UHGV virus genome: UHGV-0371921
Strand: one strand, 5' to 3'
DNA from: a virus
Length of the DNA: 12,071 nt
Below are positions 621-11,387 of the stretch, piece after piece. Below the pieces are notes generated by a model that was not told the origin of the DNA, ran no database searches, and was given only the letters and a program-made list of their open reading frames with translations. The position numbers and the translations under genes were made by a program. Position 1 is the stretch's first letter; the number at the start of each line of letters is the position of its first letter.

Positions 621-938
621 ATGCAAATTGAGATCACTGGCAACGTAGAAATCACCGAAGGCATGGTGTCTTTCATTTCCCACAAAATGTCAAAACTGGA
701 GCGTCTACATCCTTCTGTAAATCATGCACGTGTAAGTGTAAAAGTTGAAAATGATCACCAGGAAGTTATGGCGTTCATTTTTGACACTTCTGGAAAAGAA
801 GTTATTGCCAAAGCTAAGGGCAGTGATGCTTACGAGGCAACTGACCGTATGGTGGATGTTGCAGCACGTCAGCTGGCTAAATGCGGTGGAAAGAAAGGTA
901 AAGGGAAAGGCAAAGTAAAGATTGACTTTGGAGAATGA
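621..938 (+). CDS. hpf: ribosome hibernation promoting factor-like protein (RaiA/HPF/YfiA, S30AE family) with Lys/Gly-rich C-terminal tail
   Basis: MQIEITGNVEITE...KLE...VSVKVE...GKEVIAKAKGSDAYEATDRMVDVAARQLAK matches by eye E. coli Hpf (MQLNITGNNVEITE...KLE...VVLKVE...GGEIHASAEGQDMYAAIDGLIDKLARQLTK). Weak SD AAGGA; own promoter at 545-573. Confidence 0.7.
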   Translation: MQIEITGNVEITEGMVSFISHKMSKLERLHPSVNHARVSVKVENDHQEVMAFIFDTSGKEVIAKAKGSDAYEATDRMVDVAARQLAKCGGKKGKGKGKVKIDFGE

Positions 939-947
939 GGTGCTACA

Positions 948-1049
948 ATGGGCGTGATTAAGAAATTAGTCCCAAATGTAGAGATTGCATGCTTTGAAAT
1001 TATGTTTGCAATCGCAGTTGTAGTTAATGTGTTAGGTTACGGCTATTAA
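948..1049 (+). CDS. small hydrophobic peptide (33 aa), not in ORF track (below size cutoff)
   Basis: ATG 948 with GAGGTG 6 nt upstream; MGVIKKLVPNVEIACFEIMFAIAVVVNVLGYGY has a hydrophobic C-terminal half; fills the gap between flanking genes. Confidence 0.4.
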   Translation: MGVIKKLVPNVEIACFEIMFAIAVVVNVLGYGY

Positions 1050-5550: not shown

Positions 5551-5580
5551 AGGACGCTCTGTGGCGTCCTTTTCTTTATC
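5551..5580 (+). terminator. intrinsic terminator (AGGACGC-TCTGTG-GCGTCCT then TTTCTTTAT)
   Basis: 7 bp stem 5551-5557 / 5564-5570 followed by T-rich tract. Confidence 0.7.
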
Positions 5581-5739
5581 TGGTGCACGATTGCATACCT
5601 TGGGCAGTTAATCTCATTACAGAGCGTTTAAGAGCTCCCTACAAACAACTCCATATTTCGAGCGTAGCGAGAACGCACGTCCGTTTTGACCCAAATCACC
5701 ATACGCTCGGATTTTAACCAAACCCTCGCGGCGTTTCTG

Positions 5740-5768
5740 TTGACACATTACCGCTCCAGTGATAATAT
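5740..5768 (+). promoter_or_regulatory. sigma70-like promoter TTGACA-N17-TAATAT
   Basis: TTGACA 5740-5745, 17 nt spacer, TAATAT 5763-5768; a DnaA-box-like ATATCCACA overlaps the start region at 5765-5773. Confidence 0.55.
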
Positions 5769-5788: not shown

Positions 5789-5890
5789 ATGGGATACACA
5801 ATGAAAACATTGTCAGAGGTTTTGGTGGTGATCCTGATGATCATTACGTCCATAGCAGCTGTTGCCGGAATACTCACGGGTGGAACATGA
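5789..5890 (+). CDS. small hydrophobic peptide (33 aa, MGYTMKTLSEVLVVILMIITSIAAVAGILTGGT)
   Basis: First ORF downstream of the 5740 promoter; GGAGA 3 nt before ATG 5789 (alternative ATG 5801); one predicted transmembrane helix; below ORF-track cutoff. Confidence 0.4.
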   Translation: MGYTMKTLSEVLVVILMIITSIAAVAGILTGGT

Positions 5891-6101
5891 TCAACACACA
5901 CATGCATCTGAAGAGACATCCAAAGGAGTGACTATATGTCCCTTGGCTGAGCCAGTGAAAGAGGAAAACTTAGATTCTGAAGATTCTCCATCTTCGCTCC
6001 AGGTAGATCCTGAGGCTGATGACCTAACGTGGGAAGACATCGTAGATATCTGGTTCTCTATTATGCCTGAGCACGAAGAGTTCAGAGGTGGTAGACTATG
6101 A
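5862..6101 (+). CDS. hypothetical highly acidic protein; 5' end uncertain (track TTG 5862; alternatives TTG 5943, GTG 5955)
   Basis: Open frame with acidic, protein-like C-terminal half (EENLDSEDSPSSLQVDPEADDLTWEDIVDIWFSIMPEHEEF). No good SD before 5862; AAGGAG 5923-5928 instead serves a 4-codon mini-ORF (ATG 5936 to TGA 5948-5950). Confidence 0.4.
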   Translation: MPEYSRVEHDQHTHASEETSKGVTICPLAEPVKEENLDSEDSPSSLQVDPEADDLTWEDIVDIWFSIMPEHEEFRGGRL

Positions 6102-6567: not shown

Positions 6568-6595
6568 TTGACATTCTTGCCTATCCTGATAAAAT
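6568..6595 (+). promoter_or_regulatory. sigma70-like promoter TTGACA-N16-TAAAAT reading into the ORF-free zone
   Basis: TTGACA 6568-6573, 16 nt spacer, TAAAAT 6590-6595; no ORF with a ribosome binding site follows. Confidence 0.45.
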
Positions 6596-7119
6596 TAAGT
6601 TCTTCTCTTTTCTTTTACCGAGTAATTCGGGTTTTCTGTTCTCTTCGGTTTGAAGGGGTATGGAGATACACCTGAGTGAACAGGGTGAACAACCGAACCA
6701 TTGGCTATGGCATTAGCATGGCGAAGCGGACGGGTGACGAAAGAGGGGCCGGAGGACACCAGTCACTGCCATATGATATATGGGTGATAACCTGAAGAGT
6801 CTGAATAAGTGTTTAAGTACCAGTCAGAGGAAAAGGTGAATGGTAGCCGAAGGGGAGGGGGGTTTCTTGTATCTTTAATTTGTATATTATGTATACACTT
6901 GTAAACCAATCTCATCTGAATCTGTTTACCACACAAAGCGAATAGAGACAAATATTACCTATTAAACTTGAATTATTTATAGAAAATACCGCAACACCAC
7001 TTAAGTCTTTGATTTTACACACAAATCCTACAGATATTCAGCCTCCCTATTTAACATACCTGTAACATATTCCATACTCTACCTGCCTGATCAATTTACC
7101 CAACTACATCCCCATATTT

Positions 7120-7579: not shown

Positions 7580-7933
7580 ACGGGCAATTTAACATAATAC
7601 CCATTATGCGCACCACTGGCGATACATACAGGGATTGATAACATAGGTTACTGTTTACGCACATAACAATTATATTTCTTATTATTTGTGGGGGGATATA
7701 GTTAGCAGCCAATAGATTAGATATTGACCTGCAGACTTCTGACCGTCCAGACGTCTAAACGCCCACACAACAAGGATTATACATACAACACTGAATGTAA
7801 ACAGGGCCGCAAAAATGCTACCATACAAGCTTGTAAATTTTTCATGCAGCACTTGACAAAGAGGAGAAAAACTTGTCTGACATAATATGACACTTTAAGC
7901 ACATTAAACACACTGAACATAATTGACATGCAT

Positions 7934-8038
7934 GACTGTTTACGCTGTCACTATTCACGCTATTACTATTCGCTCGCTTACTGTTCATGACCTTTACTGT
8001 TTACATTCCCAATAGTTTACATAGCTTACTGTTAACGT
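7934..8038. repeat. iteron-like cluster of ACTGTTTAC / TTACTGTT direct repeats
   Basis: Exact ACTGTTTAC at 7935-7943 and 7996-8004 (also 7650-7658 and 8472-8480 outside the cluster); variants TTACTGTTCA 7978-7987, TAGTTTACA 8013-8021, TTACTGTTAAC 8026-8036; all in one orientation. Confidence 0.6.
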
Positions 8039-8064
8039 ATAGATTATTTACTCAAAAATGATAA

Positions 8065-8084
8065 GCCATGCCATTCGTTTGCAT
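8065..8084. repeat. 20 bp direct repeat GCCATGCCATTCGTTTGCAT, left copy
   Basis: Identical 20-mer recurs at 8296-8315. Confidence 0.8.
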
Positions 8085-8130
8085 GACAATAATTATACAT
8101 GACAATAATCGCACTGATTATAATTAGCAT

Positions 8131-8282
8131 GACATAATATAAAAGCAGGGCAACTATTAGCAGATCTATAGTTGCCTTGCTTGTTATGTCATGATTAACT
8201 GAATACAAGGCAACTATGATCTGATTAATAGATTGCAGACAAACTATCACGGGGGTGATGGTTACTGCTTTTATATTATGTC
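8131..8282. repeat. 16 bp inverted repeat pair GACATAATATAAAAGC (8131-8146) / GCTTTTATATTATGTC (8267-8282) enclosing the palindrome
   Basis: Exact reverse complements. Confidence 0.75.
8149..8176. repeat. 28 bp palindrome GGCAACTAT-N10-ATAGTTGCC (candidate protein-binding site)
   Basis: 9 bp arms are exact reverse complements; further GGCAACTAT copies at 8209-8217 (direct) and 8314-8322 (inverted); 12-mer CAAGGCAACTAT is shared by the arm at 8168-8179 and the copy at 8206-8217. Confidence 0.75.
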
Positions 8283-8295
8283 GCGACTCCGTCGC

Positions 8296-8315
8296 GCCAT
8301 GCCATTCGTTTGCAT
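8296..8315. repeat. 20 bp direct repeat GCCATGCCATTCGTTTGCAT, right copy
   Basis: Identical to 8065-8084; preceded by small hairpin CGCGAC-TCC-GTCGCG (8282-8296). Confidence 0.8.
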
Positions 8316-8929
8316 AGTTGCCTTATTGTTACAGATAGAATAATTGTATTGTTAATTATTTCTTATCTTTCTATTAGTCATCTAATGATTCCAGTTAGTA
8401 TAGTAACGTACAGTAAACATTAGACGACTAAAGATTTCTCTGCTTATGGTAACCTAACGTGACAATTCCAGACTGTTTACGAAAAATGTTGACACTTGGG
8501 CCGATTTATGTTATGCAGTTTACACGAATAATTATTTTATGCAGGTATTGACTATTCCGTTATTCTATGGTTGGAATAAATGCTTAGCAGGCTATAGAAT
8601 GGCGAGCGTACGTAAATTCTGAGATCTGGCGGCTATAGTTATACTCGATTTTTCACGTAGAAAACGCTTTTGTAGTTATGTAAGTGTATGACTTATAAGA
8701 ATTTTTAGTTGTTGACAAGCTATTGAAGATATGCATCAGGTTAAATTTTGTGCAAATGCTGCATTACGTGCAATTTTGGAAGGAAAAACGTGTAAAAATG
8801 GCCCTGCTACCACACAATGAAAAATTATGCAATAGTTATTTTATATGTATGTTTGTACAGTGGGGTTAATTGCTGGCTTGTTGATTATTCCATTTGCCAG
8901 GCGGGGCCATTTGTGGTAGGAAAAGAGGA

Positions 8930-10281: not shown

Positions 10282-10416
10282 TTAAAACAAGGTGCCAACC
10301 GTTCCCAATAGATCACTGACTACCAGGACAATACTGATTAGCACATACCTAACCATAAGGGGAAAGAGCGCCAGCGATCCAGCCACAATCCCCAAGGTGA
10401 TGATTATCTTTCTCAT
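10282..10416 (-). CDS. small hydrophobic protein (44 aa), two predicted transmembrane segments
   Basis: ATG 10416 lies 2 nt after the upstream stop (translational coupling); no clear SD; below track cutoff. Confidence 0.4.
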   Translation of the reverse strand: MRKIIITLGIVAGSLALFPLMVRYVLISIVLVVSDLLGTVGTLF

Positions 10417-10418
10417 GG

Positions 10419-10703
10419 TTAACGGTTTACGTAAGCTTTACCGTTTACGGTGATGGGCAGATCTTCCAGGTCTGGATCTTCCTTAAGGTCGCGAGCAAGC
10501 TCACCGCACCGGATACCCTCGAATCCGTAGTACTCTGTTGTGCCGTCATTAAAAGTTTTAGCGGCAAGGCATAAGCGATAAGTAACCCCGATTTGATTGA
10601 CGGCATGGATATCCGTTAGATTAACCTCTTTTGCCAGCTCTTTAGCCATTACAGGCGCATTAAGTCCAACAACCAGGGCAACTACTGCGATCATCTTTTT
10701 CAT
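10419..10703 (-). CDS. small secreted or periplasmic protein with N-terminal signal peptide (94 aa, two Cys)
   Basis: ATG 10703 with AAGAGG 9 nt upstream; MKKMIAVVALVVGLNAPVMA-KEL has positive n-region, hydrophobic core and AxA-like cleavage motif. Confidence 0.7.
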   Translation of the reverse strand: MKKMIAVVALVVGLNAPVMAKELAKEVNLTDIHAVNQIGVTYRLCLAAKTFNDGTTEYYGFEGIRCGELARDLKEDPDLEDLPITVNGKAYVNR

Positions 10704-10794: not shown

Positions 10795-11010
10795 CTATGC
10801 TGTACGCTCAACTATAACAACGGTTTGCGGGATCTCACCTTCCACCACTATCAAGGCCTTTTTCTGCGTGATGGATATCTTTACCCGTTGCAGCGTGGCG
10901 GTGAAGTCTTTCATTTCGTCACGTGGTGTTTTAGTGCAATGCCAGATCTCTGGCTTGCCGATCTGCAAGCCTCGCAAGAATTCCGTTTTACCTGTCTTAT
11001 TCGTGATCAT
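10795..11010 (-). CDS. hypothetical protein (71 aa from ATG 11010; track extends to ATG 11034)
   Basis: ATG 11010 has AAGGTG 6 nt upstream, whereas ATG 11034 has no SD; more protein-like than the two overlapping plus-strand ORFs. Confidence 0.5.
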   Translation of the reverse strand: MITNKTGKTEFLRGLQIGKPEIWHCTKTPRDEMKDFTATLQRVKISITQKKALIVVEGEIPQTVVIVERTA

Positions 11011-11020
11011 TTGATTCACC

Positions 11021-11125
11021 TTAACCGATACCATGGGAAGATAGGATCATGTTAGCCATAGTTGCAACCACTCCAACCGATAATGCCAGGCCAACTACTA
11101 CAACCGTGAAAATTTTATCTAACAT
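11021..11125 (-). CDS. small hydrophobic peptide (34 aa, MLDKIFTVVVVGLALSVGVVATMANMILSSHGIG)
   Basis: ATG 11125 with GAGGG about 7 nt upstream; single hydrophobic helix; below track cutoff. Confidence 0.35.
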   Translation of the reverse strand: MLDKIFTVVVVGLALSVGVVATMANMILSSHGIG

Positions 11126-11161: not shown

Positions 11162-11207
11162 GCTATGTAGTACACTTTACCAGATTGTTGACTGTTGTCA
11201 AACTATT

Positions 11208-11387
11208 TTAACGATAATCATCATATGCTTTATTGACCTGGCGAATATAACATTCAAAAGCTAGATCAATAGATTTATATTCACGGATATATTCACCATA
11301 GGAAACCACATACATTTCTATAGCTTCCTCATATGCGAGAAGAATAGAATCTAAGCCTACGATCTCAGTCTTTGCAATAATAGCCAT
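11208..11387 (-). CDS. hypothetical acidic protein (59 aa, MAIIAKTEIVGLDSILLAYEEAIEMYVVSYGEYIREYKSIDLAFECYIRQVNKAYDDYR)
   Basis: ATG 11387 with AAAGAGGA upstream in a CCACAAAGAGGA leader; shares the MAI start context with the 12036 gene; missing from track because below 60 aa. Confidence 0.5.
   Translation of the reverse strand: MAIIAKTEIVGLDSILLAYEEAIEMYVVSYGEYIREYKSIDLAFECYIRQVNKAYDDYR

Follow-up and report, generated by a model that had tools for sequence, protein, structure and literature searches.

In the small-gene region of a phage, four very short open reading frames with hydrophobic products (micro-ORFs A, B, C and D; Table 1) occupy gaps between co-oriented genes, which raises the question whether such frames are true genes and, if so, what their products might do in the infected cell. 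They had been presented in the initial annotation as unannotated one-helix peptides with plausible start signals. All four ORFs were found exactly at the coordinates proposed there, and a check of the frames in related genomes showed them to be conserved, and not broken, in close relatives.

The analyzed DNA, below called the window, is a stretch of 12,071 nt, which was assigned by megablast to Vequintavirus (rV5-like Escherichia coli myophages) with 253 matching phage records. It was 97% identical to phages ime and APECc02 over 98–99% of its length, 94.8% identical to rV5 (interval 97577–110271 of NC_011041) and practically identical to the IMG/VR contig L003. The window represents the small-gene region of an rV5-like phage, for which 88 mainly small ORFs were reported in the rV5 genome paper (Kropinski et al., 2013, PMC3606486); its genes lie on the plus strand up to approximately 6440 and on the minus strand from approximately 9000 on, and a tRNA scan of the window detected none. 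For comparison, 17 homologous loci were taken from phages in GenBank and from IMG/VR (whole-window identity of 85–97%), and phi92 and phAPEC8 were included in the analysis of C and D. The locus search in IMG/VR with the neighboring regulator yielded 3 loci, and the set was therefore built mainly from GenBank phages. As a separate observation, the so-called non-coding box of rV5 was not empty: it includes a conserved element of 275 nt (95.9–99.7% identity across relatives) preceded by a near-consensus promoter, an AT-rich cluster of short repeats and a conserved membrane-protein ORF, the latter being broken in the window. A structured RNA as the identity of the conserved element at 6596–6875 was rejected, given an MFE z of -0.65 and the lack of any Rfam match or E. 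coli homologue.

Table 1. Positions and strands of the four micro-ORFs and of the signals associated with them in the window.
Feature	Position	Strand	Description
Promoter-like site	922–949	+	TTGACT-16-TG-TACAAT; ends on the ATG of B
SD of B	937–942	+	GAGGTG, 5 nt before the ATG; overlaps the RaiA-like stop (936–938)
Micro-ORF B	948–1049	+	33 aa, one-helix peptide, MGVIKKLVPNVEIACFEIMFAIAVVVNVLGYGY
Intrinsic terminator	5551–5570	+	ends the unit preceding A
Promoter of A	5740–5768	+	sigma-70-type with extended -10, TTGACA-17-TG-TAATAT; drives A and the following genes
Micro-ORF A	5789–5890	+	33 aa, one-helix peptide, MGYTMKTLSEVLVVILMIITSIAAVAGILTGGT
(CA)n tract	5893–5902	+	extra (CA) unit, +2 insertion, in the window
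Micro-ORF C	10282–10416	-	44 aa, hydrophobic helix, MRKIIITLGIVAGSLALFPLMVRYVLISIVLVVSDLLGTVGTLF
Micro-ORF D	11021–11125	-	34 aa, one-helix peptide, MLDKIFTVVVVGLALSVGVVATMANMILSSHGIG
SD of D	11137–11133	-	GAGGG, 7 nt 5' of the ATG of D
GC-rich 5' hairpin	11161–11145	-	between the promoter and D
Promoter of D	11174–11201	-	sigma-70-type, TTGACA-16-TG-TAAAGT; D is the first ORF after it

The one-helix character of the products was confirmed: each of the four has a single membrane-helix-like stretch, with Kyte-Doolittle (KD) maxima in the window of 2.45–2.83 over 17 residues and 2.27–2.95 over 19 residues, while the 17-residue maximum across all alleles ranged from 2.32 to 3.11. Each contains one hydrophobic stretch of the approximately 17–23 residues expected of a single bilayer-spanning segment, and TMHMM/Phobius assigned "1 TMD" to the orthologues of B, C and D in rV5. 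The N-terminal KK (B), RK (C) and K (A and D) suggest an N-in topology by the positive-inside rule. The density of small one-helix proteins in the small-gene region is unusually high: ORFs of 25–50 aa with a 17-residue KD maximum of at least 2.2 numbered 7 in the window against 1.11 ± 0.97 in dinucleotide shuffles, of which 0 out of 200 reached 7, and the same class with an SD-like motif in addition numbered 4 against 0.14. The earlier tally of at least seven small hydrophobic products was thereby reproduced in number and for six of its members, the seventh ORF counted here being 8310–8423, in which codon-position periodicity gave no coding signal. This periodicity, calculated for all 196 ORFs of at least 20 aa, was not used as a test on its own, since it scored equally high in frames antisense to real genes; counts of synonymous and non-synonymous changes in each frame took its place. 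The possibility of A–D being paralogues was ruled out, as they belong to four separate PHROGs and have nothing in common except for hydrophobicity.

The start signals were scored by the duplex energy of the upstream 18 nt against the anti-Shine-Dalgarno (anti-SD) sequence. The values were -9.2 kcal/mol for B, -6.4 for A, -6.1 for D and +0.5 for C, as compared to a median of -8.8 kcal/mol for 23 long genes and to a median of -2.0 with a 10th percentile of -6.1 for random positions. The proposed ribosome binding sites were thus clearly present in B and roughly so in A and D, while C had none.

Coding was tested by sorting the variable sites, separately for all three frames, into synonymous and non-synonymous ones. 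The excess of synonymous sites was confined to the own frame of A (14 synonymous versus 7 non-synonymous variable sites, p = 2.8e-4), C (31 and 36 against 27% expected, p = 6.2e-4) and D (26 and 28, p = 7e-4), with none in the alternative frames. The pN/pS values of these three were mostly within 0–0.6, the most diverged pairs with pS of 0.64–0.71 included (pairwise Nei-Gojobori values of 0–0.37 for A, and 0.16–0.59 for C and 0.18–0.47 for D in informative pairs), and their frames stayed open in relatives at pS of about 0.65–0.7; two D pairs at 1.04 had one synonymous and three non-synonymous changes each. Such a pattern shows purifying selection at the amino acid level, the predicted hydrophobic helix being kept in every allele. 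On this basis A, C and D are very probably real genes, and B, for which variation was scarcer, is likely to be one as well. A literature search for Ribo-seq or whole-cell proteomics of Vequintavirus infection found none.

The view of A as the first ORF after a promoter was borne out: both hexamers of this promoter are kept in 15 relatives, and the preceding unit is closed by an intrinsic terminator, which makes A the first ORF of its own unit. The frame was intact in 16 of the 17 loci with this region, the first two-thirds being replaced in NHEP1, and was found by tblastn in 114 records, all of them Vequintavirus. The GGAG of A lies only 3 nt from the ATG at 5789, and the four codons leading from this ATG to the one at 5801 vary freely (GYT, ECT, EYT, KYA, EYA, ERT). 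In locus L005, A is 28 aa long, lacks the first ATG and has AGAGGAG 8 nt 5' of the second, while in many relatives ATGGAGTACACAATG puts GGAG 6 nt 5' of the second ATG; the family profile (phrog_34195, E = 4.6e-21) has 29 positions, all of which (1–29) are matched by residues 5–33. Since the first codons are free, the first ATG is missing in L005 and the PHROG has 29 positions, the conserved product of A is the 29-aa peptide MKTLSEVLVVILMIITSIAAVAGILTGGT starting at 5801, and the 33-aa form is an optional in-frame extension.

The stop codon of A (TGA, 5888–5890) overlaps the ATG at 5887 of the next gene as ATGA, and the 3' end of A holds the SD-like GGTGGA of the latter. This gene codes for an acidic 70-aa protein (phrog_16356), whose usual start is the overlapping ATG. 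At the (CA)n site the window, L003 and MaxBurger read AACACACACAT, while 15 other loci read A(A/C)ACACACAT; in the former three the insertion shifts the reading frame of the acidic gene behind its fourth codon. The remainder is still open in the window (5862–6101), albeit without a good start, and the gene is intact in PMBT16 and 241Ecol014PP. In the rV5 RefSeq record, A is not called and is spanned in another frame by gp157/ORF162 (101 aa) with a GTG start. No synonymous excess was found in the gp157 frame across A, and this ORF is only an upstream over-extension of the next gene. A fusion of A to the downstream gene in rV5 was ruled out, as gp157 starts at the GTG in a different frame.

Micro-ORF B follows at a distance of 9 nt a RaiA/HPF-like gene (621–938; PF02482, E = 4e-13), and its SD is kept in every relative, L005 having the form AGGTG. 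It corresponds to rV5 ORF145 (gp140) and to phrog_15151 (E = 3.7e-26, residues 1–33 of 33), is at least 90% identical in 118 records, exclusively from Vequintavirus, and is intact in 15 of 16 loci, the exception being Mangalyan with GAG changed to TAG at codon 12. With 5 synonymous and 11 non-synonymous sites (p = 0.28), the few variable positions gave no synonymous excess; in the comparison with L005, there were 5 synonymous and 4 non-synonymous changes (pN/pS 0.22). Because there is too little variation for the frame test, the coding status of B rests on the open frame, the strong conserved SD, this low pN/pS and the 118 records. The block 951–1100 around B has 12–17% variable columns against a median of 26%, and constraint at the nucleotide level may thus play a part here.

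Micro-ORF C, the one without an SD, has its ATG 3 nt after the stop codon TAA (10419–10421) of a 94-aa upstream gene, which suggests termination-reinitiation. It corresponds to rV5 ORF170 (gp165) and to phrog_16005 (E = 1.1e-25, residues 1–44 of 44) and was intact in all 15 loci carrying it, including phAPEC8; in L005 the frame is held through an in-frame deletion of 3 nt at 65% nucleotide identity, in V18 the stop codon is lost, and JEP1 lacks C. It was found in 164 records, which comprised Vequintavirus as well as Phapecoctavirus, Justusliebigvirus and Dompiswa phages, while a large protein database search returned 7 clusters, all from Vequintavirus. AlphaFold2 (8-sequence alignment) predicted a single helix over residues 2–43 with a pLDDT of 92.7. 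Two family assignments of C were rejected. As a lipoprotein signal peptide (LPAM_1) it reached E = 0.06 and 14.2 bits against a cut-off of 20, and Cys is present in no allele. As Pfam DUF7396 (PF24129) four alleles reached 13.0–17.7 bits against a gathering threshold of 27; alleles of the "...DLVLYINSLF" type align residues 2–43 to positions 3–44 of 46 at this sub-threshold level, and the window's own allele had no match at E ≤ 1.

Micro-ORF D has other GC-rich hairpins in relatives at the place of its 5' hairpin, and its stop codon adjoins the SD of the gene that follows, whose ATG is at 11010. It belongs to phrog_14631 (E = 7.7e-22, residues 1–34 of 34) and occurs in two alleles, both of 34 aa, the second being that of rV5, V18 and A142 (ORF173). 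The alleles are identical at 18 of 34 positions, unevenly distributed between the N-terminal (5/17) and the C-terminal (13/17) halves. The window-type allele is 88–97% identical in phi92- and phAPEC8-type phages, and D was present in 157 records from Vequintavirus, Phapecoctavirus, Justusliebigvirus and Dompiswa phages; it was not found in L005, NHEP1 and JEP1.

The description of these ORFs as unannotated could not be maintained, and the idea that missed genes form a systematic class here was likewise not supported. Public records of relatives have all four annotated, and each belongs to a PHROG family (PHROGs v4: 34195 for A, 15151 for B, 16005 for C and 14631 for D, with E of 1e-21 to 1e-26). 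In the rV5 paper, the designation "membrane protein, 1 TMD" is given in Table S3 to ORF145 (33 aa), ORF170 (44 aa) and ORF173 (46 aa), and ORF156, one of the trio of further small hydrophobic ORFs counted in the initial annotation, is also included there (Kropinski et al., 2013, PMC3606486). These three rV5 products (gp140, gp165 and gp168) are orthologous to B, C and D, respectively, D as the other allele, and A alone was not called in rV5, while PMBT16 and the BASEL phages have it called. MaxBurger (BASEL phage Bas54) and PMBT16 have all four annotated; D is annotated also in FV3, V18, ime and A51.2, the last naming both B and D "putative membrane protein". Among annotated records sampled evenly from the tblastn hits, the locus of C bore no annotation in 15 of 25 records, that of D in 18 of 28, that of A in 5 of 21 and that of B in 3 of about 19. 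The micro-ORFs are real, ordinary and already catalogued genes whose annotation is patchy across relatives.

A–D are four unrelated phage genes, each for a protein of 29–44 residues made up almost entirely of one hydrophobic helix. As to function, these proteins would probably be accessory inner-membrane modulators; the further assumption that each acts on a specific partner is tentative. The genes would be read from host-type sigma-70 promoters, with A and D as first cistrons of their units, B coupled to the RaiA/HPF-like gene via the SD overlapping the RaiA-like stop, and C restarting 3 nt past the upstream stop; an early timing would be expected from the promoter type only. The peptides would insert in the host inner membrane, where each of them alone might serve as a dispensable modulator, binding helix to helix to an inner-membrane protein of the host or of a competing phage, in the interest of host takeover, superinfection exclusion or counter-defence rather than of unspecific membrane damage.

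Two lines of comparative evidence lead to this proposal. Firstly, the micro-ORFs seem to behave as autonomous, dispensable cassettes: NHEP1 lacks most of A, JEP1 has no C, Mangalyan has the nonsense codon in B, and D was not found in three loci; C has unrelated flanks in WM and HMD-6; C and D are shared with the Stephanstirmvirinae (phAPEC8, phi92) in contrast to A and B; and the window keeps A although the coupled acidic gene is frameshifted, while NHEP1 keeps the acidic gene without A. Secondly, polar or charged residues are conserved inside the helices, namely E17 in B, R23 and S34-D35 in C and the T-M-A-N motif in D, which would weakly favor specific binding over a detergent-like action. 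From the combination of the cassette pattern with the conserved polar residues, accessory modulators with a specific partner were inferred as the best explanation. Searches of Pfam and NCBIfam for a functional lead to A–D gave only sub-threshold matches (YqzM, YbgT, LPAM_1, DUF7396, a holin model and others), and the only neighbors with an assignable role are the RaiA/HPF-like gene and a putative regulator. No expression, localization or phenotype data on A–D were found in the rV5 paper, which contains virion-only mass spectrometry, or in the BASEL paper.

In a more far-reaching version, possible but unlikely in this full form, each peptide would be a helix-mimic inhibitor of a different inner-membrane machine of the host, with C and D as cassettes mobile between Vequintavirinae and Stephanstirmvirinae, and the set would make up a counter-defence and exclusion toolkit. 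Among its conceivable targets would be a transporter, an abortive-infection effector bound to the membrane or the route by which the DNA of competing phages enters.

Small single-helix peptides may also act on membranes without any partner, by toxin- or holin-like depolarization or permeabilization aiding host shut-off or the timing of lysis, and for A–D this is rather improbable. TisB and Hok are type I toxin peptides. A–D resemble them and DinQ (PMC3567139) in length, composition and single-helix hydrophobicity, and A had a weak match to the phage holin model TIGR01598 in NCBIfam (E = 0.08, 13.2 bits). The cut-off of this model is, however, 39.7 bits, and all family matches were far below the threshold. 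Moreover, the four genes are located outside the lysis genes, the lysin and the putative holin of rV5 being ORFs 89 and 129 beyond the window, and their products end in uncharged C-termini (TGGT, GYGY, GTLF, HGIG) in place of the charged tail of holins; none of the three holin features, i.e., family match, location and tail, was thus observed. Unlike the type I toxins, A–D belong to polycistronic phage units behind constitutive-looking sigma-70 promoters, with no evident antisense RNA or tight repression: the promoter scan produced no convincing antisense promoter facing them, but only weak 9-of-12 matches, such as that at 1027–999 on the minus strand. The conserved polar positions inside the helices also speak against a toxin.

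Slightly less probable still is a role of the peptides as membrane anchors or subunits of their coupled neighbors, in which case the acidic 70-aa protein would be the partner of A, the RaiA/HPF-like factor that of B, and the flanking small proteins those of C and D. The tight junctions described above (ATGA after A, the SD of B on the RaiA stop, 3 nt before C, the stop of D beside an SD) would be consistent with such pairs, but tight packing is general across the whole region, and the partners are separable. C stands in WM and HMD-6 between entirely different flanks, with a weak SD of its own and a terminator after it; the acidic gene persists in NHEP1 without A, and A persists in the window, L003 and MaxBurger, where the acidic gene has no coupled start.

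It is very unlikely that A and D are mere leader ORFs, the translation of which would only open or couple the downstream start with the peptide sequence being irrelevant. Both are indeed promoter-proximal, and the 3' end of A combines an SD-like motif with the ATG overlap. Such a role would, however, leave unexplained the amino acid-level purifying selection and the helix preserved at pS up to 0.64–0.71, and in L005, with an earlier end of A and a separate AGAGGT SD for the next gene, the peptide is still kept.

Finally, a chance frame in conserved non-coding DNA, excluded for A, C and D by the frame-specific synonymous test, is scarcely credible even for B, where 951–1100 would be the 5' leader or promoter of the gene at 1076–1345: the missing synonymous excess, the promoter-like site ending on the ATG, the low variability of the block and the stop codon in Mangalyan are outweighed by a frame open in nearly all loci and strongly conserved in the 118 records, by the best SD of the four at an ideal spacing, conserved even in L005, and by the low pN/pS against that locus.

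The proposed accessory modulators have counterparts in kind among known systems. AcrZ, MgrB, MgtS and CydX are small inner-membrane regulators of bacteria with 50 aa or fewer. A–D share with them the size of 29–44 aa, the single helix with very short tails and the conserved polar residues within it, and helix-helix binding to a larger membrane protein, as proposed here, would be a similar mode of action; in contrast to these regulators, they are phage-encoded and have no sequence relationship to them, so that the likeness is one of kind and not of family. Among phages, Imm and Sp of T4 are exclusion proteins. The phage accessory proteins Gnarl1-3 (40–90 aa) inhibit host pathways (bioRxiv 10.1101/2023.04.06.535777), and Gp11 of phage PhiNM1 is a small membrane protein (PMC11237401). 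Similarly to A–D, all of these are short, come from variable, non-structural parts of phage genomes and have a mosaic presence and absence between related phages, although they have no homology to A–D and are mostly longer; they act on functions of the host envelope, which for A–D is a proposal only. Bacterial small membrane proteins are treated in two reviews (PMC10730256, PMC13525628).

For the current understanding of these phages the results change nothing, and their practical value is modest. Comparative selection, as evidence beyond mere ORF calling, establishes three or four of these tiny frames as real genes. As to annotation, the conserved start of A is moved to 5801, gp157 in the rV5 RefSeq record is flagged as an over-extended ORF in an alternative frame, and C and D lack an annotation in over half of the sampled annotated records. 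Experimental work has neglected phage proteins of this small, single-helix type, and A–D, with their presence in 114–164 sequenced phages and in the tractable Bas54, are convenient candidates for such work. Should the helix-mimic reading be true, the Vequintavirus small-gene region would carry a membrane-directed toolkit such as has so far not been described for peptides of this small size.

Conservation in the window peaked in an element at 6568-6875 (+), where variable columns made up 3-8% compared to a median of 26%, with an identity of 95.9-99.7% across all relatives, including the diverged L005, which otherwise averages 85%. This element was present at no less than 95% identity in 119 phage records and falls within a box termed non-coding in the rV5 genome paper (Kropinski et al., 2013; PMC3606486). 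The inspection of the element revealed no testable coding signal, the Rfam search gave no match at E ≤ 10, and a homologue looked for in E. coli was not found, while the z-score of its RNA minimum free energy was only -0.65. The element is a candidate for either a non-coding RNA or a cis-acting site.

Features of the region and their coordinates
Feature	Coordinates	Strand	Remarks
Promoter-like site, 10/12 matches	922-949	+	-10 hexamer ends on or overlaps ATG of micro-ORF B (948)
44-aa ORF	5583-5717	+	annotated in rV5 (gp156), FV3, PMBT16 and MaxBurger
rv5_gp157/ORF162, RefSeq CDS	5796-6101 in rV5 (L001, NC_011041)		GTG start, frame crossing micro-ORF A
Near-consensus promoter TTGACA-16-TG-TAAAAT	6568-6595	+	conserved element directly behind
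Conserved ORF with membrane helix	~7580-8085	-	inside the 'non-coding' box
Perfect 20-nt direct repeat	8065 and 8296		within the 8060-8330 cluster
Perfect 18-nt inverted repeat	8131-8148/8265-8282		within the 8060-8330 cluster
Promoter-like site, 10/12 matches	10298-10269	-	-10 ends on or overlaps ATG of the gene after micro-ORF C (10270)

The membrane-helix ORF was matched by tblastn in all relatives. Its product has 120 aa in PMBT16; the version in A51.2, annotated as a 'putative membrane protein', has 90 aa. In the window, its Cys-rich N-terminal part is broken by stops, and the intact remainder comprises 56 aa (7682-7852, minus strand) with a GTG start and a maximum Kyte-Doolittle hydrophobicity of 2.99. 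Short repeats were clustered at 8060-8330 in AT-rich DNA (34% GC), coinciding with a conservation island at 8201-8350. Apart from the perfect repeats, the cluster contained two copies of CATGACAATAAT and four copies of AGGCAACTAT in both orientations inside 176 nt, the latter with 0.85 copies expected in the whole window. This arrangement resembles a cluster of iterons or operators and is possibly a replication origin.

Micro-ORF A is a one-helix peptide frame at 5789-5890 (+). The gp157 frame had no synonymous excess across A (5 synonymous and 15 non-synonymous variable sites, or 2 and 18), while such an excess was present in A's own frame; the gp157 annotation is probably an over-extended downstream gene hiding A. 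The acidic 70-aa gene (phrog_16356; 5887-6101, plus strand) usually starts at an ATGA overlap with A. It is frameshifted by a +2 (CA) insertion in the (CA)n tract at 5893-5902, which is common to the window, the essentially identical contig L003 and MaxBurger, and absent in 15 other loci. The frameshift leaves a 14-codon ORF at 5887-5931, and a GTG of the original frame (5928) overlaps its stop codon as GTGA. Either this GTG could serve as a relay restart, or the gene may be inactive in the window. The ORF at 5583-5717, situated between the terminator 5551-5570 and the 5740 promoter, was intact in 12 of 16 and had no coding signature (11/15/13 variable sites by codon position; 11 synonymous and 35 non-synonymous); it is probably not a gene.

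Approximately 18-24 GenBank 'Campylobacter phage' records (MG0656xx), marked UNVERIFIED, lacking annotation and with C. jejuni given as the host, shared 88-99% identity with the E. coli Vequintavirus region studied here, and their names or hosts look doubtful.

Homologues of micro-ORF C (10282-10416, minus strand) in WM (~11200-11350) and HMD-6 had neighbouring sequence on both sides that bears no relation to the window's, as did the FV3 homologue on the downstream side. In WM and HMD-6, C lies between two hairpins, a GC-rich one upstream, where there is also a weak SD (AAAGAG), and a terminator-like one directly downstream. C is therefore a self-contained cassette which moves as a unit. The promoter-like sites at the start codons of B (micro-ORF 948-1049, plus strand) and of the gene following C may be chance matches; were they functional, transcription would begin within or past the start codons of B and the 10270 gene.
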